From: a virus | Lineage: Duplodnaviria > Caudoviricetes | Strand: one strand, 5' to 3' | IMG/VR virus record: IMGVR_UViG_3300006467_000454 | Location: 44,321 to 108,320 of that record | Length of the DNA: 64,000 bases | Program-made: the position numbers and the translations under genes | The notes under the pieces: model-generated | Database searches by the model: none | What the model was told of the DNA's origin: nothing | The model's input: the letters and a program-made list of their open reading frames with translations, nothing else | Part shown: positions 21 to 62,725 of the stretch, in pieces | Position numbering within the stretch: position 1 is the first letter of the stretch | How the letters are laid out: every line of letters begins with the position of its first letter

Positions 21-3000
21 ATGCCTTTGACCCCTACTTTTGACCAAATTACTTTAAATAACGCTGCCACTATGCCAAGTGGTGCTGTAAGGTTGGATCA
101 ATTGAATAGTGCAATCTTAGGGCAGCATTGGCAAACACCAGCGGATGATATTTTATCAACTCCACCAACTTCACCCGTTTTGGATTCAAGGTATATTATT
201 AATCCAACTGGGACTGGTGCTTGGGCTGGGCATGATAATGAAATCGCCCAATGGAATGGGGCAGATTGGGATTTTACAACACCACAAGAAGGTTGGACTC
301 TTTGGGTTAGGGATGTTGATACTAACTACAATTACAATGGTACAGCTTGGGTTGAGTTTGGGACGACTGTAACTCACAATAATTTAACGGGGCTACAAGG
401 GGGTCAAGCAGGTGAATATTATCACTTGACAGCAGCTCAGCACGCAGCAGCTATCACTACCCCTACCCTTCAAACTGTTACAGTTGCAGGGGCTACATCA
501 GATCAAGATTTAATACTTACAGGGGGGATATCTTCAACAGCAAGTGGAAGTAATTCTGAGAGATTTGGAGATGGAGCTTTGGCTAATGTTGTTGCTTTAG
601 ATGGTAATGGGTTTTACAATACTGCTTTTGGTAAAAATGCTCTGAATTCCCTTAACAATGGATTCAGGAATACAGCATTTGGGGAAGCAGCGTTGCAAAG
701 TGCTACGACAGCTTCGAGTTGTTCTGCTTTTGGTAGATTTGCGCTTGGTGGGGGTGTCCTCACAGGTTCGAATAATTCAGCATTCGGAATTTCTGCTTTA
801 GCGAGTGCAACATCAGGTGCAAATAATGACGCATTTGGGAATTCTGCTTTAGGTGCTACTACAACAGGAGAAAGTAATTGTGCTTTTGGTGGGACAACGA
901 TGAGTTCTAATACAACTGGATCTTTTAATTCTGCCTTTGGTAGATCAGCCCTCAGCCAAAATAGAGAGGGAACAAATAACACTGCAATTGGATTTGAAGC
1001 GTTAAGGAATTCAAGACCTACAAGTGGCACTATGGATAATTCTACAGCAGTAGGGTATCAAGCAGGGATAAATCAGCAAGGTGATAATAACTTATTCTTA
1101 GGTTATAGGGCAGGATATCACGCTTCAAATATCACAAGTTTCACTAATTCAGTTGCAATTGGTGCTAATTCAAATATAGATGCGAGTAACCAAATTGTAT
1201 TTGGGGATGCAAATGTTACTGAGATAAAAACTGCAGCCTCATTCAATAGTTCAAATGCTTCCCCAATAGGGTCGGCTCCTGGGGGAACAAATGTCCCTTC
1301 TGGATCTGTATTAAGGGCTGATGGGTCCGGAGGGTCTTCTTGGCAACAATCTTCTGGGTATGAAACTTTTGTAGTAGGCACTTATAACGAACTTACTTCT
1401 GCTCTTACTTCTGCACAGACAGCAGGGGCAGGGTTGATATTATTTTCTGCAGATATTGCGGTCCCTGCAACCACAGTTATGAATTACGATTATTCAGGTG
1501 TTACAATTGACCTTGGTGGGTTTGCATTAGATTTAGGTTCGAATGCTAGAATTTCTCACCAATCAAGTAATGATAGGAGTATGGTTCTATTCACTAATGG
1601 TGCCATACGGGGGGATGTAACATCAACAAGCAAGTTATTCTTCGAAACTGTAACAACTGGGTATTGTAGGGTTGTATTTGATGATATAAGTTTCGATAAC
1701 ATTGTTCAAAATGATGATGCATCTAGAACCAATAACCATATCCAATTAAGTTCTACAACAGGAAGGAGTACAAGAATTGAATTCTTAAGAAATATAATTT
1801 TCACTAATAATGAAGATATTTCCGCAGGGCAACTTGAAATTAGGAATGTTGCATCATTTGAGCTTCACGTTGTTACATTATTCAACAAATATGTAACTGA
1901 TACAGAAAGAACGAATAGGATTGCAATTGTAGGTTCTTCACCTGCACAATTAGCTGATTCTGACATATTAAATGATGGTAGTTGGGATGTAGTTTCTATA
2001 ACTGGGAGTTTGGCGATTTCAGAATTTAATCTCTATGATTTCACGTCAGGAACACCAACCTTACAGCAGGTTACAACTGCTGGTGCTTCTACAACAGATG
2101 GGATAACAATTGGGGATACATTGAATTTAGGGGCTGGAACTAATACTGTGAATAAAACTATATTCGCAAATAATGGGGATGCCAGTAAACCTGCGATTAG
2201 ATATAATGAAACTACCAATGCTTGGCAGTTTTCTGACGATGGATCAATATTCACAAATTTTGGTGGGGGTGCCGTTGCATCATTATCTCCTGAAGTTACT
2301 GATACTTATAGGGATTATACAGATCATTTGACTGTAACAGGAATAATCGGATCAGATGTGATGCAAGGCTTAACCTATTTCAATGGATTTTGGTATTGGG
2401 GTCAAAACTTAGGTGCTGGGGTTAATGGTAGGATTTATAAGATTAACGCAACAACTGGGGCTGTTGATTCTAACTTTGCAGGACCCCCTCACGCTGCTAC
2501 AGGTGATGTCAGGGAAGACCATAATACTATGATCTGGGGATCTGGTGGTGATGATGTACCTGCTGCTTGGGAAATAGATGGGAATGGGACTCTTATCAGG
2601 CAATGGACATTTACTGGGACTACTTACAACAGGGGTGGTGCGGTTGTTTATGTTAGTGAAAATAAAATTTTATTATATTCTTCATCGAATTGGAATTTTG
2701 ATTTACGAGAAGTTACAATTAATGATGATGGCACTTGGGTTTACGGATCAGTTGTCGCAACTGGAACTCGTAGTATGGGTAGACCTCAAGGATTTGATTA
2801 TAAAGATGGATTCCTTTACTACCTTTGTGATGAGTATAATATAGCTGCCGATTCCGCAGATGAAACTGTAAAAGTCATTTACAAGTTAAGGATGCCAGAT
2901 GCAAGTGGTCCTGTTGAAGTTGTGAATGCTTGGAAATATCAGACTGGTACAACATTTGATGAAGCGGAAGGATTAACTTTCGTTGGGGATGAACTATATT

Positions 3001-3488
3001 TTGGGGCACATGATTCTAAGAAAATTAGGCAAGCCCATTTCCCTACAACAAGCCGAAGTGTAACAACTAATTATTTACACATTGGGGAAGAGAGGTTAGC
3101 AGGGATTAGTTTAGCTGCATTGATTGAAGGTGATGTTACATCCACTGGGGTATTCAGGGGAGATAACATTTGGCCAGTAAATTACCGAACTTTGTCAGGG
3201 ACTTCAGTAAGTATGAATGCAAGCACTTCACTCAATGCGATAATTACCCTATCCGCTGCCACAACCACAATAAATATGAGTGGTTTAGTTAGTGGGATGA
3301 GTGGTAATATAATCGTGAATCAGGATGCTACTGGGGGGAGATTATTAGCTATAACCCCGACCCCTAAAGTAATCAATGGTGGAGGTGGAAATATTCCATT
3401 AACAAGCGCAGCTAATGCTAGGGATATTGTATCTTGGACTTATGATGGCACTAATTTGAATGTGAATGTAGGACCTAATTATACTTAA
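21..3488 (+). CDS. Tail fibre / receptor-binding protein (DUF2793-like N-terminus, NxAFG beta-roll repeats, propeller-like segment, C-terminal tip domain)
   Basis: N-terminal PPTSP..RYII..GTGAWAGHDNEIAQW..W.F..P.EGW matches the DUF2793 pattern; about 10 tandem 14-aa NTAFG..AL repeats; G/T/S/N-rich; C-terminal IIVNQDATGGR...LTSAANARDIVS. Confidence 0.8.
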   Translation: MPLTPTFDQITLNNAATMPSGAVRLDQLNSAILGQHWQTPADDILSTPPTSPVLDSRYIINPTGTGAWAGHDNEIAQWNGADWDFTTPQEGWTLWVRDVDTNYNYNGTAWVEFGTTVTHNNLTGLQGGQAGEYYHLTAAQHAAAITTPTLQTVTVAGATSDQDLILTGGISSTASGSNSERFGDGALANVVALDGNGFYNTAFGKNALNSLNNGFRNTAFGEAALQSATTASSCSAFGRFALGGGVLTGSNNSAFGISALASATSGANNDAFGNSALGATTTGESNCAFGGTTMSSNTTGSFNSAFGRSALSQNREGTNNTAIGFEALRNSRPTSGTMDNSTAVGYQAGINQQGDNNLFLGYRAGYHASNITSFTNSVAIGANSNIDASNQIVFGDANVTEIKTAASFNSSNASPIGSAPGGTNVPSGSVLRADGSGGSSWQQSSGYETFVVGTYNELTSALTSAQTAGAGLILFSADIAVPATTVMNYDYSGVTIDLGGFALDLGSNARISHQSSNDRSMVLFTNGAIRGDVTSTSKLFFETVTTGYCRVVFDDISFDNIVQNDDASRTNNHIQLSSTTGRSTRIEFLRNIIFTNNEDISAGQLEIRNVASFELHVVTLFNKYVTDTERTNRIAIVGSSPAQLADSDILNDGSWDVVSITGSLAISEFNLYDFTSGTPTLQQVTTAGASTTDGITIGDTLNLGAGTNTVNKTIFANNGDASKPAIRYNETTNAWQFSDDGSIFTNFGGGAVASLSPEVTDTYRDYTDHLTVTGIIGSDVMQGLTYFNGFWYWGQNLGAGVNGRIYKINATTGAVDSNFAGPPHAATGDVREDHNTMIWGSGGDDVPAAWEIDGNGTLIRQWTFTGTTYNRGGAVVYVSENKILLYSSSNWNFDLREVTINDDGTWVYGSVVATGTRSMGRPQGFDYKDGFLYYLCDEYNIAADSADETVKVIYKLRMPDASGPVEVVNAWKYQTGTTFDEAEGLTFVGDELYFGAHDSKKIRQAHFPTTSRSVTTNYLHIGEERLAGISLAALIEGDVTSTGVFRGDNIWPVNYRTLSGTSVSMNASTSLNAIITLSAATTTINMSGLVSGMSGNIIVNQDATGGRLLAITPTPKVINGGGGNIPLTSAANARDIVSWTYDGTNLNVNVGPNYT

Positions 3489-3489
3489 A

Positions 3490-15520: not shown

Positions 15521-16015
15521 ATGGCAAACAAAAGTAGGCACATTCCTATTTCGGAATATTATTCTATTTTGCAATTAGAATATATATCGTTTAGGCTTCG
15601 TGAAGCTATTTATCAAAAGAAGTACTCAGAGAAGTACAAACCTTATTGTGAAGGTAAAAAAGAAAAGATTGAAAGTATTGCATTGCAAAATTGTTTACCT
15701 TCAATTTTTAATTCGGAAACCTCAAGAGAAAAATATTTGGGGAAGTTTTTCAATGAATTTGGATTGCCCAATTTTACCTATAAGAATGAAGATTCTAAGG
15801 AGAAAATGGGTAAGTGGGATAAGTATTATTATTTTTCTCCTGGGACTTCCGTTAAATTTAAGGTAGAAGATAGCAAGGATATCCAAATCGGGACTATCGT
15901 TTCTAATTTGATTGAGGAAGAATCAGTTGTTGTAAAAACAATTGAAAAAGAAGAATTCACGTTGGCATATAGCAAAGTTGCCCGTATGCTCGTGGAAAGT
16001 TTGTTTAATTTTTAA
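15521..16015 (+). CDS. Hypothetical protein
   Basis: ORF tightly packed between primase and dUTPase. Confidence 0.55.
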   Translation: MANKSRHIPISEYYSILQLEYISFRLREAIYQKKYSEKYKPYCEGKKEKIESIALQNCLPSIFNSETSREKYLGKFFNEFGLPNFTYKNEDSKEKMGKWDKYYYFSPGTSVKFKVEDSKDIQIGTIVSNLIEEESVVVKTIEKEEFTLAYSKVARMLVESLFNF

Positions 16016-16025
16016 TTTTTGGAAA

Positions 16026-16541
16026 ATGTTAAATGTAAAAATCAAGCCTGAAAGAATCAATTTTCAGAAACCAGTAAAAGGAAGTAAAGATGCAGCGTGT
16101 TGGGATGTTTATGCTTCCAAAATTGAAGAAAAGCCAGATGGGTTGGTGATTGTTTATTTAGGGTTCAGTACTGAAATCCCTGTTGGCTATAAGGGTGTTA
16201 TCGTAGCCCGTTCCAATATCACTAAATATGGCTGGTGTATTCCTAATGCTCCTGGACAAATTGATCCAGATTTCCGCAATGAGTGGCAAGTTAGATTCCG
16301 CAGATTGCCTATGTTCCGTGAAAAAGAATTAGTGGGGAATCCACGTTGTAAAAACGGGGAAGGGGAATTGTATTCCAAAACTCAAGATTTCTTAGAGATG
16401 CATTCGTTCCCTTATAAGCAAGGTGAAAGGGTTGCCCAAATCTACTTTGAAAAAGAAGAAGAAGTTGTTTGGCAAGAAGTTAAAGAAACCAATGATACCG
16501 AGCGTGGCTTGGGTGGCTTTGAAAGCACTGGGAGATCATAA
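16026..16541 (+). CDS. dut: Trimeric dUTPase
   Basis: All five motifs present: AACWDV, ARSN, GQIDPDFRNE, GERVAQ, RGLGGFESTG; ATG at 16026. Confidence 0.9.
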   Translation: MLNVKIKPERINFQKPVKGSKDAACWDVYASKIEEKPDGLVIVYLGFSTEIPVGYKGVIVARSNITKYGWCIPNAPGQIDPDFRNEWQVRFRRLPMFREKELVGNPRCKNGEGELYSKTQDFLEMHSFPYKQGERVAQIYFEKEEEVVWQEVKETNDTERGLGGFESTGRS

Positions 16542-16669: not shown

Positions 16670-17644
16670 ATGGGCGTAAGCGTAAAAGATGTATTGAAAA
16701 GAAAATACAAGAAACTGAAAGATGATGAGATCATCGATATGTTATCAACTGAGTTGAAAGAAGAAGAACGTGAAGTTCTTTTGGAACTTGCTAAGAAAAG
16801 GAAAATCATTAATGATATTCCGGAATCTACTGAGGAAGTTGAAGAAATTCCTTATGAAAAACCTGACGCTAAATTGGTGAAAAAGGCTGTGAAAATTTTT
16901 GATGATTTTGCCGAAAATCAGGAAACTGATCTTTACGGTAAGGCAGCGGAGATCATTAAAGATCGTGAAATTTCTGAACTTTCTAAGCATGAAGTTGAAG
17001 CGATTATTGCTTTGAAACCTGCTACAAAACGTAAAAAGGCTCCAGCAAAGGCAAAAACTGAAAAACCTGAAAAAGCGGAGAAAAGTGAAAAGGCTGCTAA
17101 ATCCGGAAAGGGAAAAGGCAAGGAGAAAGAAAAGGTTGAAGAGCCTAAAGCTGAAGAAAAAGTAGAAAAGCCTGAAAAAACGGAAAAGAAAGAAAAAGCT
17201 GTTTCGTTTAAAGCCTTTAAGGATCTTGCCATGAAAGCGGAAAACGTGAACGATTTTTATGAAGCCGTTAAGGAAATGAAAGATGTTCCTAAGAAAACTG
17301 TCGATAAGTTTTATAAGAAGTACGGTCAGGATGGTAAATTGGCGGAGTTTGAAGCCCTTAAAGTTTTCTATGATGAAACTATGGAAAAGAAAGAAAAGGC
17401 TAAAACAAGCAGCAAGCGTAAGCCATTTGTGGAGCTTGATGAATCTGCTGAGGTTAAAGGTTTGAAACTTGGTTCAAAAGTTTCTTTCAAAGCTCACCAC
17501 CTTTCTAAAAAAGCAGGTGAACAAATTAAGGGTAAAGTTACCCGTATCATCATTGCTAATCGTGATAGCAAGGAGTACATCAAAATTGAAACCAAAAATG
17601 ATGGTGAATTCCACAAGAGAGCGAATTCTGTAGAAATATTATAA
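16670..17644 (+). CDS. Lys/Glu-rich hypothetical protein, possibly nucleic-acid binding
   Basis: Central EKPEKAEK low-complexity tract; small beta-rich C-terminal domain. Confidence 0.55.
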   Translation: MGVSVKDVLKRKYKKLKDDEIIDMLSTELKEEEREVLLELAKKRKIINDIPESTEEVEEIPYEKPDAKLVKKAVKIFDDFAENQETDLYGKAAEIIKDREISELSKHEVEAIIALKPATKRKKAPAKAKTEKPEKAEKSEKAAKSGKGKGKEKEKVEEPKAEEKVEKPEKTEKKEKAVSFKAFKDLAMKAENVNDFYEAVKEMKDVPKKTVDKFYKKYGQDGKLAEFEALKVFYDETMEKKEKAKTSSKRKPFVELDESAEVKGLKLGSKVSFKAHHLSKKAGEQIKGKVTRIIIANRDSKEYIKIETKNDGEFHKRANSVEIL

Positions 17645-17653
17645 AAAGTTTCT

Positions 17654-18715
17654 ATGTATAATAATCGTATTGTCATTGATTTAGATGACACAATATCCGT
17701 TACATTTGATAGGGACTGGGAAAATTCAACCCCAGTCCTTCCTGTCATTGGAAAAATTAATCAACTGTATGATTTAGGTTGGGAGATTTGCATTGTTACT
17801 GCAAGGGGTCAATTAAGTTGTAAAGGAGATTCAAAAAAAGCCGATGATAAATACCGTACTCAAATTGAAACTTGGCTCAAGAAACACGGAGTCAAATACA
17901 CTTCTTTATCATTTGAGAAAGTATTAGCCACATATTATGTTGATGATAAATCATTGTCACCTGAGGATTTCACAAAATTGAATGTTGTGGGATTACAGGG
18001 GGGATTGTCTGGCGCCAAAATTGAAAAGGTGGGGGATAAGGTTTACAAGACACATAAAAACTCTCTTCAGGCTGTTAAATGGTATTCCATAATTGAAAAC
18101 TATGATATTCGTATTCCTAAAATACATAGTATTATTGGGGATACTATTTGCATGGAATATATAGAGGATTGCCCAATAAAGCAACCCCATTTCCCTAGCC
18201 TTACAAAAGCCATTGATATTTTTTCTGGGATTAAGGTGAAAGGGGTTCCGTTTGATAATTATATTGAGCGTATCCATAAGCATGCGGAATATCATGGTGA
18301 GTTTTCTGAGATAGTTGACGAATTGGTTTTACATTCAAAATTTTATGAGGAGTTTTCTTCATTTTGTCATGGGGATTTTTCTATTGATAACATTTTAATC
18401 GATAGGAAAGGTTCCCATTATTTGATTGACCCAATTTATGAAGAAGATTCATGGAGTTCATGGCTTTTGGATGTTTCTAAATTGGCTCATTCTTATAGAA
18501 GGTATGATAAAGTTGATACCCTTTGGAATATTTATGAGCATTATAGGCATAAGGTAGACTGGAATCATCTTAAACTATTAGAAATAACTCAATGGATCAG
18601 GGTGCTAAAATACCTTAAAGACCAGAGGGAGATAAACAGATTTAGAAACACAATAGACGTTATGATGTATGAATATTTTGGTAGAAATAGAAAACCTAAA
18701 ACTAAATGGTTCTAA
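17654..18715 (+). CDS. HAD phosphatase (capsule-biosynthesis type) fused to an APH/choline-kinase-like phosphotransferase
   Basis: HAD motifs IDLDDT, VTARG, K, YVDDK; kinase motifs GGLSGA..K, CHGDFSIDNIL, LIDP, DVSKL. Confidence 0.82.
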   Translation: MYNNRIVIDLDDTISVTFDRDWENSTPVLPVIGKINQLYDLGWEICIVTARGQLSCKGDSKKADDKYRTQIETWLKKHGVKYTSLSFEKVLATYYVDDKSLSPEDFTKLNVVGLQGGLSGAKIEKVGDKVYKTHKNSLQAVKWYSIIENYDIRIPKIHSIIGDTICMEYIEDCPIKQPHFPSLTKAIDIFSGIKVKGVPFDNYIERIHKHAEYHGEFSEIVDELVLHSKFYEEFSSFCHGDFSIDNILIDRKGSHYLIDPIYEEDSWSSWLLDVSKLAHSYRRYDKVDTLWNIYEHYRHKVDWNHLKLLEITQWIRVLKYLKDQREINRFRNTIDVMMYEYFGRNRKPKTKWF

Positions 18716-19106
18716 AATAGGCTTCACTGCAAGCTCTTTTGATTTGATGCATCCTGGACATATCGCAATGTTATCAGAAGCAAAATCAAAATGTGATTAC
18801 TTGATAGTGGGGTTGTTGACAGACCCAACAATTTCTAGGTACGGTTCAAAAAATAAGCCTGTCCAAACTACTTTTGAAAGGTTCATTCAGGCTCAAGCTT
18901 TAGGCTGTGTTGATTTCATAATCCCATTTGATACCGAAGAAGATTTGGAGCAAATGTTGAAATTGATAATGCCTGACATTCGGTTCGTTGGTGAGGAGTA
19001 TAAAGATAAAGATCACACGGGTAAAAATATCGATGGGATTGAAATCTTTTACAATAAGCGAAAGCATAATTATAGTTCTTCAGAATTAAGGGGGAGGTTA
19101 AAATGA
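18669..19106 (+). CDS. HxGH nucleotidyltransferase (TagD / HldE-C cytidylyltransferase family)
   Basis: SSFDLMHPGH, KP......ER and C-terminal RKHNYSSSELR. Confidence 0.88.
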   Translation: MNILVEIENLKLNGSKIGFTASSFDLMHPGHIAMLSEAKSKCDYLIVGLLTDPTISRYGSKNKPVQTTFERFIQAQALGCVDFIIPFDTEEDLEQMLKLIMPDIRFVGEEYKDKDHTGKNIDGIEIFYNKRKHNYSSSELRGRLK

Positions 19107-21616
19107 AAAGATATAAAATAGCATATATGGTGCATCGTGGGGATACCAATGGAGGATTCCCACAGCACACGGAAACTATTATCCATGCCTTAAAGGAATT
19201 AGGGCATCAGGTTAAATTCTTCTATCTGGATTATTGCGTTGGGGATAAAGCTTCTTTTATGGCTAAGAAAGTAGAACTTTTCCAGAATGGAGAGCTGATG
19301 CGTCAGGGTCATGAATTGCAAATCACCAAAGGGATAGGGACAGGGGAGTTTTACGATTCTGAAAAGGGTTGGTTTTGTCCAGTAACTCCATATAAAAATA
19401 TGGATGATAAAAAGAAGCTGAAAGCAGAGTTGGAAGAATACGACGCTGTATTTTGGCATACTCCATTTTGGTTCAAACAAAAGCCTACATTAATGGATAC
19501 GGATTGGCCAATGTTATTGGATTTGGAAAACCCAGTAAATATTGGAATGGTTCACGATGCTAATTTAAGGGCAAATGGGGCGTGGCAGTATTTTATAAGC
19601 AAATACTTTGACAAAATAATTACAGTCCATTTTGCTTCCTACAATTCAGCCTCAGTGCTACCTGTAAAACGTACCTTGATATTCAATCCTCAGGATTTAT
19701 CAAAAGTGGATGAATCCCATACTAATTTCAAGAATATCAAGAAAACGGGGAAGATATTCTCACTCCAGAATTGGAAGGGTAGCAAGCATGTTGATGATTT
19801 GATTCGTGCAGTACCTTACTTTTCAAAGAAGGTGAAAACAGTCGTTGCAGGGGATGGGATTGAAGCCCGTTATATGTTTGGCTCCAAGGAAAAGATGAAA
19901 CCTCAGTATTATTGTACTAAGGCTAAGGATCCGGATTTGCCTGAAAAATTAGAGGGTAAATTGACAATTGCTGAAAGGGCTCAGGAAACTGGACGATTTG
20001 AAAAATTGTTTTGGCTTGATTCAGATAATCGTGATAAACAAATGTCTGAAGCTGCTTTCTTTATTGATACAGCTTGGTATAGTGTGAATAAAGAATTGGG
20101 AAGCCACTTTTCTAGAACGTTAATTGAAGCCATGATGGCAGGTTGTGTACCTATCGCCAGAAACTTTGGATTAAGTGATAATGCGGAAGGGTTGGGTGAG
20201 TTATTTAAATCCAATATAAATTACATAATGATCCCCCATGATGCAACCCCTGCTGAATTCGCTGAAATTGTTAACAATGCGTTCAAAATGGACAAGAAAG
20301 AGTACAAGCGTATTGTAAAAAACAATTATAAACTCTTGGAAAATTTTTGTATGCTTAATGTAGCAAAGCAATATATCAAGTTAATAGAAGATAAAAAGAC
20401 TGGATTCTTTGATAAATATGAAGTTGGTGAACCGACTGAGGAGTTTATCAAAAAGGCTGAATTGCAATGGTTCGGTACTGGAGATAAAAGGACTTTTAAC
20501 TTCAAAAAAGAAGAAAGCATGGTTGAAGAAACCCCAGAGGATAAAAAGCCTAAAAAAGAAAAGGCTGAAAAACCTAAAAATGAAGAGGGCAAAAAGGAAA
20601 AGAAGTCAAAGTCCCCAAAACCAAAAGGGAAATGTGAGTTCACCCCTAATGAGAATTTCAAATATTATTTCTATTGGATTAGTGAGCGAATGAAAATATT
20701 CTGGGAACGGAATAAGGGTGAGGAAGCTCCTTGGACTGAGGATAAGATTTTGAATGATCATAAATTTACCAACGTTTATCGCTGCTTGGATCGTACAAGC
20801 CAATATTTGATAAAGCATATTATCAACGATACGAAGAAACGTTCCAAAGAAGAATTGTTTTGGAGAATATTATTATTCAAACATTTCAATTCTCCTGATA
20901 CTTGGATAGCCTTAGAAAAGAAATTCGGGGATATTACCTTAGAAACTAAGGTGAAGAAAATTATTAAGTTCCTTGAAAAGTACAAGAATGAAGGGAATAC
21001 CATTTACAGTAATGCTTATATGATGACAGCTTCCTTTATGAAGAAGCCAGAATTCATGAAAAAGTATAAAATGGGGGATTCAAGGAGTAAGCATGAAGCC
21101 TATCTTAAAATGCTTTGGAATGTCTTTATTGAGGAAGGGCTTGCAAAGAAAATTATTAAAAGTAAATCTTTGGAAGAGGTACAAGGTAAATTTAAGGAGG
21201 TTATTACTATTGGTGATTTCTTAGCGATGCAATATACCATTGATATCAATTACAGTAAGTTGATTGATTTTAGTGAAAACGATTTTATCGTTGCAGGTCC
21301 TGGGGCTATACGTGGAATTGACCGTACATTCGATATTGAGAGTGCTCCAGATTATCAAAAGATCATCAAGTGGGTTCACAAGAACTTTGATAAGCTGGCT
21401 AACGAATACGGGTATAAATTTAAGCCCCTCCCAAAACGTGCCTTGACTTTAATTGATTTGCAGAATTGCTTCTGTGAAACGGATAAATATTTGAGAGGGC
21501 GTGGTATCGATAATCCTAAAAAGGAAGTCGGTGGAAAACGCATCAAACAAGTATTCACTCAAAACACAGATAAAATTGAATATGTACTTCCCGAGAAGTG
21601 GGAAATAAAATTGTAA
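19103..21616 (+). CDS. GT-B glycosyltransferase fused to an aGPT-Pplase1 / 5-hmdU-DNA-kinase-helical domain
   Basis: N-part: GG.PQH, K..KHVDDLIRA, FSRTLIEAMMAGCVPI (GT-B). K-rich linker about 20510-20630. C-part: WISER...PWT.D.IL..HKFTNVYR.LDR, AGPGA.RG, QNCFCETDKY. Confidence 0.8.
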   Translation: MKRYKIAYMVHRGDTNGGFPQHTETIIHALKELGHQVKFFYLDYCVGDKASFMAKKVELFQNGELMRQGHELQITKGIGTGEFYDSEKGWFCPVTPYKNMDDKKKLKAELEEYDAVFWHTPFWFKQKPTLMDTDWPMLLDLENPVNIGMVHDANLRANGAWQYFISKYFDKIITVHFASYNSASVLPVKRTLIFNPQDLSKVDESHTNFKNIKKTGKIFSLQNWKGSKHVDDLIRAVPYFSKKVKTVVAGDGIEARYMFGSKEKMKPQYYCTKAKDPDLPEKLEGKLTIAERAQETGRFEKLFWLDSDNRDKQMSEAAFFIDTAWYSVNKELGSHFSRTLIEAMMAGCVPIARNFGLSDNAEGLGELFKSNINYIMIPHDATPAEFAEIVNNAFKMDKKEYKRIVKNNYKLLENFCMLNVAKQYIKLIEDKKTGFFDKYEVGEPTEEFIKKAELQWFGTGDKRTFNFKKEESMVEETPEDKKPKKEKAEKPKNEEGKKEKKSKSPKPKGKCEFTPNENFKYYFYWISERMKIFWERNKGEEAPWTEDKILNDHKFTNVYRCLDRTSQYLIKHIINDTKKRSKEELFWRILLFKHFNSPDTWIALEKKFGDITLETKVKKIIKFLEKYKNEGNTIYSNAYMMTASFMKKPEFMKKYKMGDSRSKHEAYLKMLWNVFIEEGLAKKIIKSKSLEEVQGKFKEVITIGDFLAMQYTIDINYSKLIDFSENDFIVAGPGAIRGIDRTFDIESAPDYQKIIKWVHKNFDKLANEYGYKFKPLPKRALTLIDLQNCFCETDKYLRGRGIDNPKKEVGGKRIKQVFTQNTDKIEYVLPEKWEIKL

Positions 21617-21620
21617 TTAT

Positions 21621-22646
21621 ATGTATATTTTTGAAAACTTGAATTCGGCTTTAGTTGGGATGTGTTCTAACTTACTGGAGTATGGGGAAACAAGGGAAAC
21701 AAGGGGGCATCATTGCGTTGAGATACCTTATCCCGTTTTAATCTGTATTAACAACCCGACTGACAGGTATGTGACTATCCCTGAAAGAAAATGGAATAAG
21801 GTCTTGCCGTTTGCGGAAAGCCTTTGGTTGGCGTTGGGGTTAAATGATTTGGATGAATTGCCAGGAAATTATGTGAAGAATTTGTATAATTTTTCAGATA
21901 ATGGTAGAACGTGGCGTGCAGGTTATGGTCCGAGAATGAGATACTTTAGTGGGCATGGTTCTGATTATGATATTAGTAAACGTGATGAGGCTAAAGTTTA
22001 CTCTGGGGATATTAACCATACTGACCAGTTGAAGTTTGTTATTGATACTTTAAATAGGGATATCAATAGCCGACAAGCTATCATTACAATCCATGACCCT
22101 GCAAAGGATGACTTTGATCGTGATGGTGGGCTAAAGGTTACAAAAGACCAACCTTGCACACGTAGCATCCATTTCCAAGTAAATACCAAGGGGGAATTGG
22201 ATTGCATCGTTGACATCCGTTCTAACGATGTTTTGTGGGGATTCTCAGCGGTTAACGTCATTAACTTTGCTATCATGCAAGAATACGTTGCTAATATTAT
22301 GGGGCTGCCTATTGGTAAATATTATCATTTTGCCCATAATTTCCATTATTATGAAGATTTTGAAAGTAGAGTAGTTGAGCTGAGAGATGTTGGGTTTTCT
22401 GACCCTAATTACCATAAAGAAAGTGTTAAGTTCCAATATAAGGATCCGATTGGGGACCTTGAGAACTTTGATTTCCTATTGGATTTATTGTTTGATTATG
22501 AGAAATCACTTCGTGAGGGATATTCGTTGCCTTGTGATTTAGGTAATGATATGTTCAATGACTGGGCTAAAGTGTTCTATAACTATTGGACTAAGCAGCC
22601 AGTGTATTTTGAAAATCCACATTTAAATAAATTGTTTAATATTTAA
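21621..22646 (+). CDS. Thymidylate-synthase-family enzyme, probable dUMP hydroxymethylase
   Basis: YGPR, SRQA, KDQPCT (catalytic Cys), RSNDVLWGFSAVN (Asn at the specificity position = uracil substrate), H.YE; context of aGPT-Pplase1 domain and dNMP kinase. Confidence 0.78.
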   Translation: MYIFENLNSALVGMCSNLLEYGETRETRGHHCVEIPYPVLICINNPTDRYVTIPERKWNKVLPFAESLWLALGLNDLDELPGNYVKNLYNFSDNGRTWRAGYGPRMRYFSGHGSDYDISKRDEAKVYSGDINHTDQLKFVIDTLNRDINSRQAIITIHDPAKDDFDRDGGLKVTKDQPCTRSIHFQVNTKGELDCIVDIRSNDVLWGFSAVNVINFAIMQEYVANIMGLPIGKYYHFAHNFHYYEDFESRVVELRDVGFSDPNYHKESVKFQYKDPIGDLENFDFLLDLLFDYEKSLREGYSLPCDLGNDMFNDWAKVFYNYWTKQPVYFENPHLNKLFNI

Positions 22647-22653
22647 TTCGTAA

Positions 22654-23325
22654 ATGGCATTAAATGACTATCGATATAAGTATATTTATGCAACATTTAA
22701 TTTAGTGAATGGTAAATTTTATGTCGGTAGCCATATGTCCAATAAAGATCCTAATTCTGATAAATACCTTGGCTCTGGTGTTAGGATTAAATACGCCATA
22801 AGGAAATATGGTAGGGTTAATTTCAAAAGGGAAATTATTGAATTTTACCACGGAGAAGATATTGAAGAATTTAGGGATTTAGAAACTTATTGGATAAATT
22901 CTTTAGAAGCCGTAACATTAGGGTATAATCTAAAAGAATCAGCTAATTCCCCTTATACTGAAGGTAAAAGTGTTGGGGATAAAATAGCAAAAACATTGAG
23001 GGGTGTCCCAAAATCAGAATCCCATAAACGGAACCTTAGTAAAAGTAAACAAGGTTCAAAGCCATGGAATTTAGGGGTCCCATGTAGGGAAGAAGTGAAA
23101 AAGAAGATACAAGCCACTTCTAAGAAAAGGGTCATCCCTAGGGAACATATTGAGAAAATGCATAAAGCTGTTACAGGTGTTCCGAAGAGTAAAAGGTTCA
23201 AGAAAATTATATCTGATTCTTGGAAGAATAGGGAGGAAATAAAATGCCCTCATTGTGGGTTAAAAAGTAAAAGTTTAGGTAACATGAATCGTTACCATTT
23301 TAATAATTGTAAATCAAAATCGTAA
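22654..23325 (+). mobile_element. Free-standing GIY-YIG homing endonuclease with NUMOD3-like repeats
   Basis: YIY...NLVNGKFYVG, YLGSG, KYG..NF.RE, E..WI, GYN; repeated G.PKSE.HK..LS modules. Confidence 0.85.
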
Positions 23326-48240: not shown

Positions 48241-50790
48241 ATGTTGAATTTTGAAGACGTTTATCAATCAACACTTTCTTACTTTAATGGTGATGAGCTA
48301 AAAGCAAATGTCTGGATGGCAAAGTATTGCCTAAAAGATAGGAAGGGCAATCATCTGGAATTAAACCCAGACCTTATGTTCAGGAGAATAGCAAAAGAAA
48401 TTGCTAGGGCTGAAAAGAAGTATCCTAATCCAATGCTAGAAGGGGAATTGTATGAATTGATGAAAGATTTCGGATATATTATTCCAGGAGGTAGCCCGTT
48501 GGCTGGCATAGGGAATAATACACAAATAACATCTCTTTCAAATTGCTTCGTTATCGAAAGTGCGGAAGATTCCTATGGGGGGATTATGAAGACGGATGAG
48601 GAGCAAGTTCAGTTGATGAAAAGGAGAGGGGGTGTTGGCCACGATATTTCCACTTTACGTCCGGAAGGCTCCCAAGCTAATTTCTCTATTTTAAGGGGAA
48701 ATACAGGGACAATCCTTTATATGGATAGATTCTCTAATTCTACAAGGGAAGTAGCCCAAGATGGCAGAAGAGGGGCGTTGATGCTTTCAATAAGTGTTAA
48801 ACACCCAGATTCAGGGAAGTTTGTTGATGCTAAAATGGAACAAGGTAAGGTGACTGGGGCGAATATCTCTGTGAAGCTTACTGATGATTTCATGAGGGCG
48901 GTTATTGAGGATGATGATTTCATTCAGGTTTTCCCTATTGATACGCCAAATTCAGTAATAGCTTCTGTAAAAATCCCAGAGGAATACGATAAATTAGTGA
49001 ATATCGGTAGTACTGATTCCGGGCATGTGTACATCAAGAAGATTAAAGCTAAAGATTTATTCGAAAAGATCGTAAACAATGCGCATAAATCAGCAGAGCC
49101 AGGAGTTTTGTTCTGGGATAAGATTATAAGGGAATCACCTGCAGATCACTACGGTGAAGACTGGGAAACAAAATCCACAAATCCTTGTGGGGAAATTCCA
49201 CTTTGCCCGTATGATAGTTGCCGTTTATTAGCAATAAATCTGTTTAAATTTGTTGAGAATCCATTCACCCCTCAGGCTTATTTCAATTTTGATAAGTTTC
49301 GTAAGTATGCTCAAAAAGCCCAAAGGATTATGGACAGCATAGTAGATTTGGAAATTGAAAAACTGGAAAGGATACTTGCTAAAGTAATGGGTGACCCAGA
49401 ATCTGATAAGATTAAAAAGACTGAGATTGAATTGTGGATGAAAGTCATTGACAAAGCAGCTCGTGGGAGAAGAACTGGATTAGGAATTACTGCGGAAGGG
49501 GATATGCTTGCGGCATTAGGGATCACCTATGGCACAGTAGAGGCTACTCATTTCTCTGAAGAAGTCCACAGGGTATTGGCTGTTGAAAGCTACAAGGCAT
49601 CAATTGATATGGCTGTAGAACGTGGTGCATTTCCGGAATGGGATTACGAAATGGAATTTGATAACCCATTTGTAATGCGCATTATGTCAGAATTGGATAA
49701 AGAAGGTAGCAAAGAATACATTGAAAAGTACTTGATGAAAGGAAGGAGGAACATCTCCAACTTAACAATTGCCCCAACTGGAACTATAAGTCTGGAAGCA
49801 GGGGTGACATCAGGTATTGAACCTGTATTCTTGCCTGTTTATAAGAGGAGACGTAAAATTGATGACCCAACCAAAGCTGATTTTATTGATGAGGTTGGTG
49901 ATGCTTGGGAGGAGTACAATGTATTCCATGAAAACTTCAAACTTTGGTACGATATAAATTGGGGACATTTTATTCACGATGGTGAAGTTGAAAAGGTAGA
50001 TATTGAATATTTGAATGACGAGCAAATTGAAGAATTGGTATTCCATTCACCATACTATAAAGCAACGTCTAACGATGTTGATTGGGTTGAAAAGGTGAAA
50101 ATGCAGGGTGCTATCCAAAAGTGGGTGGATCATTCAATTAGTGTTACCGTAAATGTACCAAAGGAAGTCCCACCATCGTTAATAAAGGAGATTTATTTAA
50201 AAGCTTGGGAAGTAGGCTGCAAGGGTTGTACTGTATATCGTGATGGTTCTCGGTCAGGAGTTCTAATATCAAAAGGTGATGACTCATTCCCAGATAAGCG
50301 ACCAAAGGTTGTTGATTGTGATATCAATCACACTACTATCCAAGGTGTGAAGTGGGTTGTATTAGTTGGGGTAATAAAAGGTAAGCCGTATGAGGTGTTT
50401 GCTTTTGATTTGCCTGAGGAGGAGGCAAATAATCTTCCGAGAAAATACACCAAGGGTAAGTTGATTAAAAACAAAACAAAAGATTACAATCTAGAAATAG
50501 ATGGTGATGGCACGTTGCATAATTTGACTAGGGAATTCTCTAATCCAACGGAAGGGGCGTTGACTAGGATGATTAGTATGTGTATGAAGAAATATCCAAT
50601 TGAGGATGTTTATTTACAACTCCAAAAAGAGGGGAATGTGAGTGATTTCCACAAAGCGATAGCCCGTGTTTTTAAACGGTATCTAAAGGATAAAGATATT
50701 GGTGTAGAATGTCCGGAATGCTCTTCTACATTAAGAATTGAAGAAGGGTGTATTATCTGTCCAAACTGCGGATACTCAAAATGTGGTTGA
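48241..50790 (+). CDS. nrdJ: Class II (adenosylcobalamin-dependent) ribonucleotide reductase
   Basis: SLSNCFV, RRGALM, TNPCGEIPL, TIAPTGT, TSGIEP, GCKGCTVYRDGSR, C-terminal CPEC/CPNCGYSKC; no beta subunit nearby. Confidence 0.9.
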   Translation: MLNFEDVYQSTLSYFNGDELKANVWMAKYCLKDRKGNHLELNPDLMFRRIAKEIARAEKKYPNPMLEGELYELMKDFGYIIPGGSPLAGIGNNTQITSLSNCFVIESAEDSYGGIMKTDEEQVQLMKRRGGVGHDISTLRPEGSQANFSILRGNTGTILYMDRFSNSTREVAQDGRRGALMLSISVKHPDSGKFVDAKMEQGKVTGANISVKLTDDFMRAVIEDDDFIQVFPIDTPNSVIASVKIPEEYDKLVNIGSTDSGHVYIKKIKAKDLFEKIVNNAHKSAEPGVLFWDKIIRESPADHYGEDWETKSTNPCGEIPLCPYDSCRLLAINLFKFVENPFTPQAYFNFDKFRKYAQKAQRIMDSIVDLEIEKLERILAKVMGDPESDKIKKTEIELWMKVIDKAARGRRTGLGITAEGDMLAALGITYGTVEATHFSEEVHRVLAVESYKASIDMAVERGAFPEWDYEMEFDNPFVMRIMSELDKEGSKEYIEKYLMKGRRNISNLTIAPTGTISLEAGVTSGIEPVFLPVYKRRRKIDDPTKADFIDEVGDAWEEYNVFHENFKLWYDINWGHFIHDGEVEKVDIEYLNDEQIEELVFHSPYYKATSNDVDWVEKVKMQGAIQKWVDHSISVTVNVPKEVPPSLIKEIYLKAWEVGCKGCTVYRDGSRSGVLISKGDDSFPDKRPKVVDCDINHTTIQGVKWVVLVGVIKGKPYEVFAFDLPEEEANNLPRKYTKGKLIKNKTKDYNLEIDGDGTLHNLTREFSNPTEGALTRMISMCMKKYPIEDVYLQLQKEGNVSDFHKAIARVFKRYLKDKDIGVECPECSSTLRIEEGCIICPNCGYSKCG

Positions 50791-52965: not shown

Positions 52966-54129
52966 ATGAAAAAGAAAGCGATAAAGAAATTATTAAAGCG
53001 TAATAGGGAAGAGTTCCCAAAGCATATACAAAGTGCCAGTGCTAAGGTACAGGCAGAGTGGAGTATATGGAACGAGATGGGTAAATTAAATAAGAATCAT
53101 CCGGATAAGATTTATCAATTTGATGGTGGTGATAAAGTGGTTAGTGTTGATTGTGGAGGTGTATGGGGTAAGATAAGGGATAAGATTCTTAAGAATGGCG
53201 GGAAGCAGGAGGATGTTGATGAATGTAGAAGGCGGTTTGATCTACTGAAGAAAATGCACGCTGAAAAGATGAAACAGTATCGTATCTGGAGTAAACTGTT
53301 GAAGACTGAGAAGGGGATGAAACCCACAGCGGATATTTTGGAGATAGAGAAAGAGCGGATAATTGATCTATTCGGACAGTACTATACCCAAGGAGAAGTT
53401 TACAAGATCATGACTCAAGAGTGGATGGTATCAACGTCTCTAGTAAGGCTAGCAGAATTCCAGAGAAAGTATCAACTATTAATAGATAAAAAGAAAACGG
53501 AGTTCGTCCGGAAGAATAAAGATTTTAGATTAGCAACGGATACGGGGCGTCTTGAAGATTTATCCGGACTATTGTTCCACTGGAAGAATGCATTTAAAGG
53601 AAGGCAATCAATTGAAGTATCAAGAGAGATCCGTGCGATAATAGAACAAGCTCGTAAGGAAGTGAAGGGTGAGGAGATAAAACTTACAGTAGATGGTAAG
53701 ATTGATATTGAAGCCACACAGAACGCAAATATGACAATGGATCAAGTGTTCTCACATTTACCTATCAACTTGATGATTATCGGGATGGTATCTGCTAGGG
53801 CTAATATATCACCATTGGAGATAATGGCAAGTTTATCAAATAGCTATTATTCTAAGTTCAACGGATTCTCTAAACTGGAACTTGAAGAAGATATCCCAAG
53901 TATGCAAAGGTACGTGGAGAGATACAATCTAGAATCAATGAAATCAATAGCAGATAGCCAACCAAAGCCTATCACGATGGGTCAATTTGAAGATTCCGGA
54001 ACAAGCCCAACCATTCAAGAACAAGCGAAGTTATCAAGACAAGCAGTACTTGATAAAATAGCGGATCTCAAGAGCAACAGGAAAACAGTTGAAGATGTTG
54101 ATTGGGAAGAAGCAAGTGATGATGAATAA
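52966..54129 (+). CDS. Hypothetical protein, candidate terminase small subunit (DUF2280-like core)
   Basis: F.....D..LA....RL..L ... IIEQARKEV.G resembles the DUF2280 pattern; acidic DVDWEE tail. Confidence 0.45.
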   Translation: MKKKAIKKLLKRNREEFPKHIQSASAKVQAEWSIWNEMGKLNKNHPDKIYQFDGGDKVVSVDCGGVWGKIRDKILKNGGKQEDVDECRRRFDLLKKMHAEKMKQYRIWSKLLKTEKGMKPTADILEIEKERIIDLFGQYYTQGEVYKIMTQEWMVSTSLVRLAEFQRKYQLLIDKKKTEFVRKNKDFRLATDTGRLEDLSGLLFHWKNAFKGRQSIEVSREIRAIIEQARKEVKGEEIKLTVDGKIDIEATQNANMTMDQVFSHLPINLMIIGMVSARANISPLEIMASLSNSYYSKFNGFSKLELEEDIPSMQRYVERYNLESMKSIADSQPKPITMGQFEDSGTSPTIQEQAKLSRQAVLDKIADLKSNRKTVEDVDWEEASDDE

Positions 54130-57757: not shown

Positions 57758-57841
57758 TATCTAAATTGAATATAAATAGTAGATCTAAGTAAAATTAGAT
57801 CTATTTTTATTTTGTAGATAAAAATATCCGGAGTATATTTG
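57758..57841 (+). promoter_or_regulatory. Palindrome, hairpin and promoter
   Basis: TATCTA-N9-TAAATA at 57758-57778; AGATCTAA/TTAGATCT; TTTG 57811-57814, N19, TATATTTG 57834-57841. Confidence 0.75.
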
Positions 57842-57878
57842 TAGTAGATAAATTAATAATGAACCAAAATATCGTATC

Positions 57879-58142
57879 ATGAAAACATTATTTAAGTTTT
57901 TAGCAAGTCTATTTTCAAAGGATGAAAATAAGGAATTAGTGAAAGCAGTTCTTGGAGTGTTCCATAAAAACCCTCACGCTTCAGCAGAGTGCCTTTGTAC
58001 ATACGCTTCATGGCAATGTGATATCGAGAAAGATAATCTGGAGTTGATTAGAATGGCAGGATATTATAAGCATCAAGATAAAGATAGTTTACCCCTTGAG
58101 TTTTATGTTACTAATTTTGATTTAATTAAATTCCAGAAATAG
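57879..58142 (+). CDS. Hypothetical protein
   Basis: First gene after the promoter. Confidence 0.5.
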   Translation: MKTLFKFLASLFSKDENKELVKAVLGVFHKNPHASAECLCTYASWQCDIEKDNLELIRMAGYYKHQDKDSLPLEFYVTNFDLIKFQK

Positions 58143-58143
58143 C

Positions 58144-58608
58144 ATGACTAGAATCAACGTAGGTATTAAAGTCAGTACGCTGACAGATCAGCACCTTTTG
58201 GCGGAGCACAGGGAGATCAAACGAACTCCATATAGGTTTAGTGTCAGGCTGAAGAAAAAAGACTTCAGTGGCATCCCAGAGAAATTCAAGCTTGGGGGTG
58301 GGCATGAGCTATTCTTTGCCGATAAAGGTGCATACACCCTGAAAAGATACAGGGAGATTCATGAAGAATGTAAACGTCGTGGATTTGATGTTACTGATTT
58401 CAGTTCATCATGGGATGTTTACGAAGGGCATGGCCAATACTTTAATGATTGGGAGCCTACCATTCACGCTAAGAAGATAATATCTGAGCGGATTATAGAA
58501 CGGATAAAAGGGCAGGAAGACCCTTGTAGATATGAAAGCATCAAGATAACCAAGATTGATGCTATTGTTAAAATAAAATCTAATTTTGTAAGTGATGGTA
58601 ATGAATAG
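58144..58608 (+). CDS. denV: Pyrimidine dimer DNA glycosylase (endonuclease V)
   Basis: MTRIN......LTDQHLLAEHREI.R, IP..F.LG.GH..FF.DK, RY..I..E...RG. Confidence 0.92.
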   Translation: MTRINVGIKVSTLTDQHLLAEHREIKRTPYRFSVRLKKKDFSGIPEKFKLGGGHELFFADKGAYTLKRYREIHEECKRRGFDVTDFSSSWDVYEGHGQYFNDWEPTIHAKKIISERIIERIKGQEDPCRYESIKITKIDAIVKIKSNFVSDGNE

Positions 58609-60102: not shown

Positions 60103-60654
60103 ATGAAAAAAGGAAGAATTGCAGGTTGGAAAATCGACCGTGTAGCAAATGGGCTTACTTCTGGGATTGAAGACAAGAGACAAGCCTTATACGATAAAAT
60201 GGAAAAGCAATTAGCAGATTACTTTTTAGGGTTTATCCCGAAGGAAGTAGTTGATTTCTGGCAAAAGTATCCAGAAAGAGTTGTAACAATGGATTCTTAT
60301 TGGCTAAAAGCAGGAAATAATAACACGGGGCTCTCTTTGTATTGTGATATCCCTGATTTACCAAAGGGTATGAAGCGTGAAGAAGTGTTGAATAAAAATC
60401 CCCAGTTGAAAGCCGAATTAATTACCCTAGCTTTAAAGCGAAAGGAACTGGAAAAGGAGCGACGAGTGCTCATTAATAAGATTAAGTGTACAATAAGTTC
60501 ATTGGGGACTTATAAACAGCTTGAAAACGAATTCCCTGAGGCGTTTAAGTATTTGGTTAAGGAAGTAGACAAAGAAGAGATTGTTGAAGCTAGACCAGAA
60601 AATCGTTGTGATAGTGTAGAAGAATTACGTGCGGAACTTTCTAAAAAAGCGTAA
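60103..60654 (+). CDS. Hypothetical helical protein
   Basis: T.K.L...FPEA motif near the C-terminus. Confidence 0.55.
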   Translation: MKKGRIAGWKIDRVANGLTSGIEDKRQALYDKMEKQLADYFLGFIPKEVVDFWQKYPERVVTMDSYWLKAGNNNTGLSLYCDIPDLPKGMKREEVLNKNPQLKAELITLALKRKELEKERRVLINKIKCTISSLGTYKQLENEFPEAFKYLVKEVDKEEIVEARPENRCDSVEELRAELSKKA

Positions 60655-61251: not shown

Positions 61252-61328
61252 ATTGATTTTAAATAACGGATAAGTTGATAAATTTATCCGCTATTATTTT
61301 GTTGATAAAAATATCCGGAGTATATTTG
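61245..61328 (+). promoter_or_regulatory. Palindrome, hairpin and promoter
   Basis: TATCTA-N9-TAAATA at 61245-61265; CGGATAA/TTATCCG; TTTG 61298-61301, N19, TATATTTG 61321-61328. Confidence 0.75.
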
Positions 61329-61360
61329 TATTAGAATTAAAACTAAAACAATCTATAATC

Positions 61361-61600
61361 ATGGAACAAAATCGTAGATTACAACTACACGTTAAATGCA
61401 TAGCAACTGCGGTTTTAGATTTTAACCTAAGTTCAAAGCGAGAAAACGATGGGTTGTCAGCTCATTTATGTATGACTAATTTATCTGCTAACATTAGTAT
61501 CCATAAAGAAAGGGAAGCGATAGATGGTATCGTGATAGCTATTGAAGATATCAATCAAGATTCAATAGGTGAATTTTTATCAATATTAACTAATCATTAA
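61361..61600 (+). CDS. Hypothetical protein
   Basis: First gene after the promoter. Confidence 0.45.
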   Translation: MEQNRRLQLHVKCIATAVLDFNLSSKRENDGLSAHLCMTNLSANISIHKEREAIDGIVIAIEDINQDSIGEFLSILTNH

Positions 61601-61805: not shown

Positions 61806-62243
61806 ATGGACAATTTAAGGATGAATGTTGGAAACCCTTTTGAAAAGGGTCACAAAGAAAGAATTGAACTTACGGATACTTTACCTGATATCTTGATGAA
61901 AATGTCAGAAGGTAATCCAGGAGCTGTTAACACAATGATGGCTATGATTACAGAAGGTAAAAGGATCGATCCTGATTCTGCTTTAGGTGAATTTAGTGGA
62001 CTGCTTTCTTTAGATTCTATAGGAATTTATGGTTCGGATATTTATATCCTTTGGAACGATATTTGTAAAAATGATATTGGGAAGACTTTAGCGATGCTAA
62101 GGGCGGTTCAGTTAGGATTTTTCAACGGGGAAATTTTAAAGGACGCTTGCCACAGGCAAGATCGATCTGGTGTGGAATTAGTTCCAGTTGATGAGTTGTA
62201 TGCTAAGGTAAAAGAAAAATTACCTGATTTTGATAAGAAATAA
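61806..62243 (+). CDS. Hypothetical phage protein
   Basis: MSEGNPGA and LD..GIYGS.IY.LW.D.C. Confidence 0.6.
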   Translation: MDNLRMNVGNPFEKGHKERIELTDTLPDILMKMSEGNPGAVNTMMAMITEGKRIDPDSALGEFSGLLSLDSIGIYGSDIYILWNDICKNDIGKTLAMLRAVQLGFFNGEILKDACHRQDRSGVELVPVDELYAKVKEKLPDFDKK

Positions 62244-62281
62244 GTGTTAACGGGGGCTTTGCCCCCATAATTCGGAACAAA

Positions 62282-62725
62282 ATGAAATTAACCAGAGTAT
62301 CAAAAGCATTAGCAATTTTGCTAAAGGGATTGGGATATAATATCCCAACTGCTTACCATTACCCAAAAGGTGTTTCTTGGGAAAATCAAAAAAATTGTTT
62401 GGAAACAGATTGGAATAATTTTACAGATATGGCTAGCAATAGTGATTATTGTTCCGCACCGACCCTTGAACTTGCCATGAAATGGTTCCGTGAAAAGTTC
62501 AACTTGTATATCGTGATATTTCCGGATAAAACTGAAGGGGTGGTGACTTATAATGCTAAGATTTGCCAAGATGATCCTACCTATGAATGGAACTTGATAA
62601 AACTTATTCCGGAAAATAAAGAACAACTCGATACAATAGTTGAAGTTGGTTCTTTTGAAGAAGCAGCAGAGAATGCTCTCCTACTAGCCTGTAAATTAAT
62701 CAATGTGAAATCTGAAACAAATTAA
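62282..62725 (+). CDS. Hypothetical phage protein
   Basis: VS..LA.LLK..GY, SAPT......WFREK...YI, SFEEA.E.AL. Confidence 0.6.
   Translation: MKLTRVSKALAILLKGLGYNIPTAYHYPKGVSWENQKNCLETDWNNFTDMASNSDYCSAPTLELAMKWFREKFNLYIVIFPDKTEGVVTYNAKICQDDPTYEWNLIKLIPENKEQLDTIVEVGSFEEAAENALLLACKLINVKSETN

Follow-up and report, generated by a model that had tools for sequence, protein, structure and literature searches.

Why would a phage genome confine almost every copy of a four-base word to a single flanking context? The question is raised by the right-hand 64 kb (64,000 nucleotides, hereafter the window) of the complete 108,320-bp virus record IMGVR_UViG_3300006467_000454, which has direct terminal repeats and in which the tetranucleotide CCGG occurs almost exclusively inside the palindromic hexamer TCCGGA. 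A sequence-only reading of the window, based on a manual scan, had listed 49 TCCGGA sites and a single other CCGG (TCCGGG at 49018), and had roughly estimated that about 6 TCCGGA among about 55 CCGG would be expected. An exact scan has returned the same picture, with 49 of the 50 CCGG being TCCGGA at identical coordinates and the remaining one being the same exception, and the rough estimate agrees with what mononucleotide composition predicts for the window (6.2 TCCGGA and 61 CCGG).

Avoidance of G/C-only words and its 5′-thymine exemption

Word counts are given from here on, unless stated otherwise, as observed and expected numbers for the whole genome, the expectation being taken from a codon-preserving null model in which synonymous codons are shuffled inside each of the 132 called open reading frames (ORFs). 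The genome is 94% coding, with 125 of the 132 ORFs on one strand. At this scale 80 of the 81 CCGG are TCCGGA (binomial P 3e-57), against 20.0 ± 3.8 TCCGGA expected (z ~16), which places this word at the top of all 4096 hexamers by enrichment, the runner-up having a z of 8.3. The remaining NCCGGN contexts taken together occur once against approximately 85 expected, and total CCGG is below the expectation of about 105-106. Both parts of the earlier proposal, that other CCGG contexts are purged and that TCCGGA is statistically favoured, thus hold under a codon-preserving null, and the hexamer is favoured in this genome, not merely tolerated.

Depletion relative to the codon-preserving null, by which avoidance of short palindromes is recognized, is likewise found at other words, and it depends on the flanks. 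The G/C-only tetramers were sorted by the number of strands that have a T immediately 5′ of the word (both-T, one-T and no-T). For CCGG, the observed and expected counts in these three classes are 80/19.6, 1/44 and 0/42. GGCC is reduced to 24 copies from an expected 100, with 18/14.1 in the both-T class, 5/43 in the one-T class and 1/41 in the no-T class, and 18 of the 24 survivors are therefore TGGCCA. A gradient of the same order has been detected for GCGC (20/68 in total; 5/7.2, 13/30.6 and 2/30.7), while CGCG is lacking altogether (0/47, zero in each flank class). The pentamer CCWGG follows the same rule, with 60 of 60 sites having the form TCCTGG/CCAGGA and VCCTGG/CCAGGB occurring 0 times against 51 expected (P 2e-24). 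A T placed 3′ of the word does not spare it, as seen for ACCGGT (0/9) and AGGCCT (1/9.4). In the tolerated sites, every CC:GG half has a T 5′ on one strand: TCCGGA consists of T-CC twice, TGGCCA of T-GG twice, and TCCTGG combines T-CC and T-GG on one strand. A purge of several words with a 5′-T exemption is statistically established in this genome; its cause is inferred from the evidence presented in the following sections.

Any Pro-Gly dipeptide necessarily encodes CCNGG, and the rule can be followed into the coding of this dipeptide. All 46 Pro-Gly in the genome are written either as CCA-GGA (23) or as T|CCT-GGN (23), with CCA-GGA used in 9 of the 9 cases that follow a residue for which no codon ends in T. 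The dipeptide itself is depleted (46 vs 70 expected).

Other word counts were also found to depart from the null. T-flanked G/C tetramers as a class stand 1.5x above it, and TGCGGA/TCCGCA, one transversion away from TCCGGA, is enriched 2.2x (49 vs 22). Some T-containing words are also absent, outside the G/C-only logic, namely GTATAC (0 vs 17.5) and, on the coding strand, GGTTTC (0 vs 24).

A predicted thymine-modification cluster and the nucleases it would face

Upstream of the polymerase gene, the window carries a group of genes related to thymine modification (Table 1). Among the components by which a 5-hydroxymethyldeoxyuridine (5-hmdU) pathway is recognized, a candidate hydroxymethylase of the thymidylate synthase (TS) family, pool-shaping enzymes and an HMUDK_hel/aGPT-Pplase-type domain are present. 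The fusion ORF, to which this negative applies, has no match to any Pfam kinase family that would mark a P-loop 5-hmdU DNA kinase domain, its N-terminal part matching glycosyltransferase group 1. The HD 5′-deoxynucleotidase and the deoxynucleoside monophosphate (dNMP) kinase would reshape the nucleotide pool, and the fusion protein is a candidate for the enzyme that decorates 5-hydroxymethyluracil (5-hmU) in DNA. Judged by its gene content, the cluster is a predicted variant of the 5-hmdU-derived thymidine hypermodification pathway. Because the partner of the helical domain in the fusion is a GT-B glycosyltransferase rather than a kinase, and a cytidylyltransferase is encoded next to it, the DNA adduct is probably a different, sugar-type group, and probably a new hypermodification.

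Table 1. Coordinates in the window of the TCCGGA sites and of the thymine-modification genes.
Feature	Position	Strand	Basis and remarks
dUTPase, upstream edge of the cluster	15942-16541	+	Pfam PF00692, E 1.4e-11
Cytidylyltransferase-like protein, probable maker of the nucleotide-activated donor	18669-19106	+	Pfam PF01467, E 5e-12
GT-B glycosyltransferase (aa ~211-410)/HMUDK_hel (aa 518-798) fusion, 837 aa	19103-21616	+	PF00534, E 3e-7; PF18723, E 1e-85
Thymidylate-synthase homologue, candidate dUMP hydroxymethylase	21621-22646	+	PF00303, E 1.7e-20; hydroxymethylase role suggested by context
HD 5′-deoxynucleotidase (YfbR-like) and dNMP kinase	23330-24468	+	PF12917, E 3e-15; PHROG 139, E 4e-13
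Set of 49 TCCGGA sites, sole tolerated CCGG context	1326-62613	.	Exact scan; 80 genome-wide
Lone exception TCCGGG (TCC GGG, Ser-Gly)	49018-49023	+	In ribonucleotide reductase large-subunit gene 48241-50790, PHROG 84
TCCGGA in spacer of repeated promoter-like element, TTTTGT...N...TATATTTG	57827-57832	.	Second copy at 61314-61319

The reading favoured here, which we hold to be probable rather than assured, is that 4-base cutters of the host have driven the loss of G/C-only sites and that a hypermodified T in TC or TG shields the sites adjacent to it. The phage would be under strong selection by nucleases cutting the short G/C-only palindromes CCGG, CCWGG, GGCC, GCGC and CGCG. These words hold no T (CCWGG holds one), and since a T modification could not protect them from within, they would be exposed in a T-modified phage and purged. 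Sites would be exempt where a CC or GG half-site is directly preceded by T on its own strand, in TC or TG dinucleotides. The protective T is probably 5-hmU to which the glycosyltransferase-HMUDK_hel fusion has attached a sugar-type group. With such bulky groups in the major groove on either side, the nuclease would be kept from cutting, such that only these sites would be tolerated and other copies would be lost to selection. In the phages M6, ViI and phiW-14, restriction-resistant sites have been reported to be enriched in TG/TC, the DNA kinase was inferred to prefer a T before G or C, and a flanking tG was suggested to protect G/C-only sites (Flodman et al., PMC6449724). Taking into account that the protective thymines of the present genome are TC/TG thymines, and hence lie in the reported preferred context, we infer shielding by adducts in the 5′ flank.

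The pattern alone defines only a "not T" flank requirement, which could also arise with no modification at all if a 5′ T by its nature kept the nucleases from cutting, their effective sites then being VCCGG, VGGCC and the like. Type II enzymes are known to cleave at rates that depend on the flanking bases. Nonetheless, three or four unrelated specificities would need an identical 5′-T blind spot, and the comparison with relatives makes this explanation very unlikely. G208 (L145-L150), a complete 104-kb relative of the same size and G+C but without HMUDK_hel, purges TGGCCA along with other GGCC: its 14 GGCC against 83 expected show no T gradient (both-T 2/9.4, one-T 5/39, no-T 7/35), and the share of TGGCCA differs from that in this phage (Fisher P 5e-4). 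No T rule has been detected at CCWGG in G208 either (31 of 65 sites). The 5′-T rule co-occurs with the HMUDK_hel cluster both in this phage and in the T-hypermodifying relative L041, where 4 of 4 GGCC are TGGCCA, with 20 GGCC expected in non-T-flanked contexts. A further relative (L151), found through the glycosyltransferase half of the fusion, has no palindrome purge and was set aside as uninformative.

At CCGG itself, G208 has the mirror image of the present pattern, TCCGGA being gone (0/18.4) yet 192 other CCGG being kept (139 expected). The hosts of the G208 sub-lineage may thus possess an enzyme of BspEI/Kpn2I type that is specific for TCCGGA. CTAG stands at 3 vs 137 in the same genome.

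PHROG and tblastn matches place the phage among phages of Bacteroidota, with a DnaE-type polymerase 43% identical to that of Cellulophaga phage phiST and further matches for RecA, an SbcCD-like nuclease, an NAD ligase and ribonucleotide reductase. Pfam and PHROG scans of 39 ORFs gave no methyltransferase and no HpaII-type or EcoRII-type nuclease, and no match to RE_HpaII or EcoRII-C was found in the six frames of the phage genome. Loci of Emticicia/Cytophagaceae with matching G+C, retrieved through the phage RecA, purge CCGG, CGCG, GCGC and GATC, and one of them also GGCC. In an Emticicia metagenome-assembled genome (MAG) with 0 CCGG against 9 expected in the sampled 11-kb locus, a full-length RE_HpaII is encoded (E 3e-145). 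Several type II restriction enzymes of the host are the most likely cutters, as the phage lacks a match to either RE_HpaII or EcoRII-C, at least four specificities come into play, the Emticicia/Cytophagaceae loci are purged and one of these bacteria has an HpaII-type nuclease. These bacterial loci are a plausible indication of the pressure and of a candidate host clade only, and the phage's actual host is not identified by them. The opposite arrangement, in which the phage's own nucleases cut unmodified host DNA at CCGG, GGCC and other words while the purge and the modified T serve as self-protection, could draw on large ORFs without a family match (for example 39612-41591, 52966-54129 and 28493-29617). 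However, several such nucleases would be needed for at least four purged words, the six-frame search returned neither nuclease family, and host enzymes suffice, given that bacteria near the RecA donor clade share the multi-palindrome purge; an origin of the cutters in the phage is therefore rated as quite improbable.

In the MAG chromosome segments of this bacterial group (L078, L084 and L086), CCGG, CGCG, GCGC and GATC are nearly gone, with CTAG also lacking in L084 and L086 and GGCC in L086, a purge that is unusually thorough for cellular genomes. When the phage DNA was searched against 201 genomes of the family of the Emticicia MAG, in order to find the host, only a conserved chaperonin-like gene matched. 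The gene in question is a 543-aa ORF outside the window (L054:2647-4278), with 65-69% DNA identity among the matches listed and a match in 201 of 201 genomes; its length and its presence in every genome sampled make a GroEL-type chaperonin a possible identity.

Several observations weigh against the shielding model. The T flank fails to rescue CGCG, as TCGCGA occurs 0 times against 5.9 expected, and TCGA, the most significantly depleted tetramer of the whole genome, is reduced 2.4-fold (129 vs 311) despite having TC on both strands. In SPO1, which contains plain 5-hmU, GGCC (1/45) and CGCG (0/23) are avoided in 50 kb with no T exemption. For ViI, avoidance of RCCGGY and CCSGG accounts equally well for the surviving CCGG, and Pseudomonas phage M6 avoids TCCGGA and TCGCGA themselves. 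SPO1, ViI and M6, tried as T-modified positive controls, thus gave no clean T rule. Finally, the TCCGGA enrichment lies at the upper end of, or above, the range of the relatives, and an extra positive force is possible. In the M6 segment (L138, 1-50000; 64% G+C), TCCGGA stands at 0 vs 16.5 and TCGCGA at 0 vs 19.4, with hundreds of other CCGG and CGCG kept.

On balance, the first cause named by the sequence-only reading, a CCGG-cutting host nuclease blocked by a bulky modified T on both strands, is the best fit, being backed by the common rule at CCWGG, GGCC and GCGC, the HMUDK_hel/glycosyltransferase cluster, the G208 control and the literature on TG/TC contexts. That reading has stood in this cause and in the purging and favouring of sites, while its analogy with cyanobacterial highly iterated palindromes (HIP1) and its suggestion of a packaging or recombination site have not, as described in the next section.

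The content of the DnaE-upstream slot that houses the cluster (window 16670-24468) varies, each relative (L041, L042, L139 and L140) having a DNA-modification cassette of its own there. These cassettes include ADDT, GATase and an acetyltransferase with HMUDK_hel; HMUD2 with HMUDK_hel; and ThyX with dGTP_diPhyd_N, an N6_N4 methyltransferase lying near. In one relative, a glycosyltransferase, a Dam-like methylase and HMUDK_hel are present as separate genes. Elsewhere in the window, 58144-58608 and 60103-60654 encode a homologue of pyrimidine-dimer DNA glycosylase (PF03013) and a nucleotide-modification-associated domain 5 protein (Nmad5, PF18757).

Preference for CCGG-forming codons and the excess of TCCGGA

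The excess of TCCGGA is visible in codon choice. The codon CCG accounts for 49% of Pro codons in T-CCG-GA, for 11-13% in neutral contexts and for 0 of 243 in contexts in which it would create an unprotected CCGG. CGG reaches 36% against a baseline of 4-5%, and TCC-GGA encodes 25 of 184 Ser-Gly against approximately 4 expected, CCGG-forming codons being used 4-8x over baseline. The preceding codon is also affected, as it ends in T in 41% of Pro-Asp/Glu contexts but in 24% if the next codon begins with a base other than G. In related phages, CCGG-forming codon pairs are preferred 1.3-5x in all frames and with any flank. A weaker preference (CCGG 1.39x over the codon null) has been observed in nine loci of Prolixibacteraceae/Bacteroidales (Bacteroidota), a candidate host clade, and none was found in SPO1. 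The density of TCCGGA in this phage, 0.74 per kb, is close to the 0.60 per kb of L041, where CCGG is unrestricted. Since relatives prefer CCGG-forming pairs whatever the flanks, with bacteria doing so more weakly, the excess does not appear special to TCCGGA, and it is read as a lineage-wide CCGG preference that has passed through the T filter. The preference could then show itself only where a CCGG is safe, and the T at the third position of the preceding codon would have been recruited as well.

Comparison with relatives is constrained by the isolation of this phage. The nearest DnaE among 5.8 billion proteins is 56% identical, close relatives for a site-by-site comparison were sought in the collections without success, and three further contigs that carry this DnaE show 100% DNA identity, and hence no microdiversity. 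Within the DnaE gene, only one of the phage's own four sites matches a CCGG in relatives, a number too small for judging the conservation of positions.

A drive resembling HIP1, in which a TCCGGA/CCGG cytosine methyltransferase together with very-short-patch-type repair converts near-matches into the palindrome, would account for TCCGGA being the most over-represented hexamer. It would also be in line with the preference for CCGG-forming codons in relatives and host-clade bacteria and with the depletion of CTGG in L041 (24/68) while CCGG is in excess (100/57). However, a six-frame search of the complete genome revealed no C5, N4/N6, N6 or Dam-type methyltransferase (PF00145, PF01555, PF02384, PF05869) and no Vsr. 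The neighbours one transition away, which such a drive would consume, are undepleted (TCTGGA 28/24, TCCAGA 35/36, TTCGGA 21/18.5, TCCGAA 13/21), total CCGG falls short of the null (81 vs 106), and the codon preference in relatives and, more weakly, in candidate host-clade bacteria extends to CCGG in any flank. The absence of the 15 other CCGG contexts and the T rule at CCWGG, GGCC and GCGC would be left unexplained. The likeness to HIP1 is therefore not upheld, and a drive of this type is considered highly improbable.

The layout of the sites bears on whether TCCGGA serves as a signal to some protein of the phage or the host (a modifying enzyme, a nicking or priming factor, or a nucleoid or packaging protein) and is kept by selection at about 1 per 1.35 kb. 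As had been noted from the window, the sites fall in different reading frames and in two promoters: all three frames are enriched (25, 16 and 35 observed against 3.7, 1.9 and 10.2 expected) and four sites lie outside called ORFs, two of these in a repeated promoter-like element. The two copies of this element (57780-57880 and 61270-61370) are nearly identical, with TCCGGA placed between the TTTTGT box and TATATTTG. The enrichment in all frames and in intergenic DNA, the promoter-like copies, the co-recruitment of the flanking T and an enrichment above that of most relatives are all consistent with a signal. Nonetheless, spacing is random (coefficient of variation 0.91 vs 0.98 under the null), and neither even spacing, nor within-gene positional bias, nor conserved bases beyond the hexamer were found around the sites. 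The motif is missing from relatives or avoided by them, no candidate for a protein that reads it came to light, and such a signal would explain neither the purges nor the T rule at other words. A signal of this kind is accordingly regarded as rather improbable, and the packaging or recombination site proposed earlier has gained no specific support, in view of the random spacing, the lack of an extended motif and the absence of strand logic. A combined possibility, in which TCCGGA (CCGG in relatives) is a positively maintained signal throughout the genomes of this Bacteroidota phage lineage, either read by a phage protein or arising from an undescribed repair bias, and in which T hypermodification co-evolved to keep the signal in a CCGG-cutting host, is unlikely.

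Significance and comparison with known systems

The pattern is, on the genomic evidence, best described as a new form of flank-dependent restriction-site avoidance that is tied to a predicted T hypermodification. Within the library searched, no paper was found describing TCCGGA in phages, flank-dependent avoidance or a genome-wide flank rule. If the shielding model is true, sequence alone would record the presence of a bulky group on phage thymines, which normally requires chemistry and enzymology, and would reveal that the protective thymines are those before C or G. One adduct per strand directly 5′ of the half-site would then be sufficient to block CCGG, GGCC, GCGC and CCWGG cutters, but not CGCG cutters. 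The weak point of T modification would be sites without T, a weakness that selection would cover down to the coding of every Pro-Gly. The gradient over both-T, one-T and no-T sites could in addition be used to flag T-hypermodified phages in metagenomes and to predict the restriction enzymes of their hosts. The CCGG preference across the phage lineage and the candidate host clade constitutes a question separate from the flank rule.

Restriction-site avoidance in phages such as SPO1 shares with the present case a strong loss of particular 4-base palindromes when counts are set against a codon-preserving null. The loss described here is, by contrast, flank-dependent, with sites that have a 5′ T on both strands being tolerated (GGCC, GCGC) or preferred (CCGG), and with the unavoidable CCNGG of Pro-Gly being solved by the choice of flank, whereas SPO1 and G208 have no such exemption. 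Similarities are also found with the hypermodification systems of ViI, M6, phiW-14, SP10 and PaMx11, where 5-hmdU is formed first and then processed by a 5-hmdU DNA kinase (5-HMUDK) and transferases (PMC5889632, PMC8989533, PMC6449724), in that this phage has a TS homologue, a dUTPase, an HD nucleotidase and HMUDK_hel next to its polymerase gene. The present system differs from these in pairing HMUDK_hel with a GT-B glycosyltransferase in place of a kinase and in its neighbouring cytidylyltransferase, and hence probably in its product. With HIP1 (GCGATCGC) and the other highly iterated palindromes of cyanobacteria, TCCGGA has in common an abundance far above the prediction from codon usage, in coding DNA and in all frames. 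It differs from HIP1 in being 4x over the codon null, with no cognate methyltransferase, no depletion of neighbours and a total CCGG below expectation, and the pattern in this phage is thus mainly that of a flank filter and not that of an amplification.

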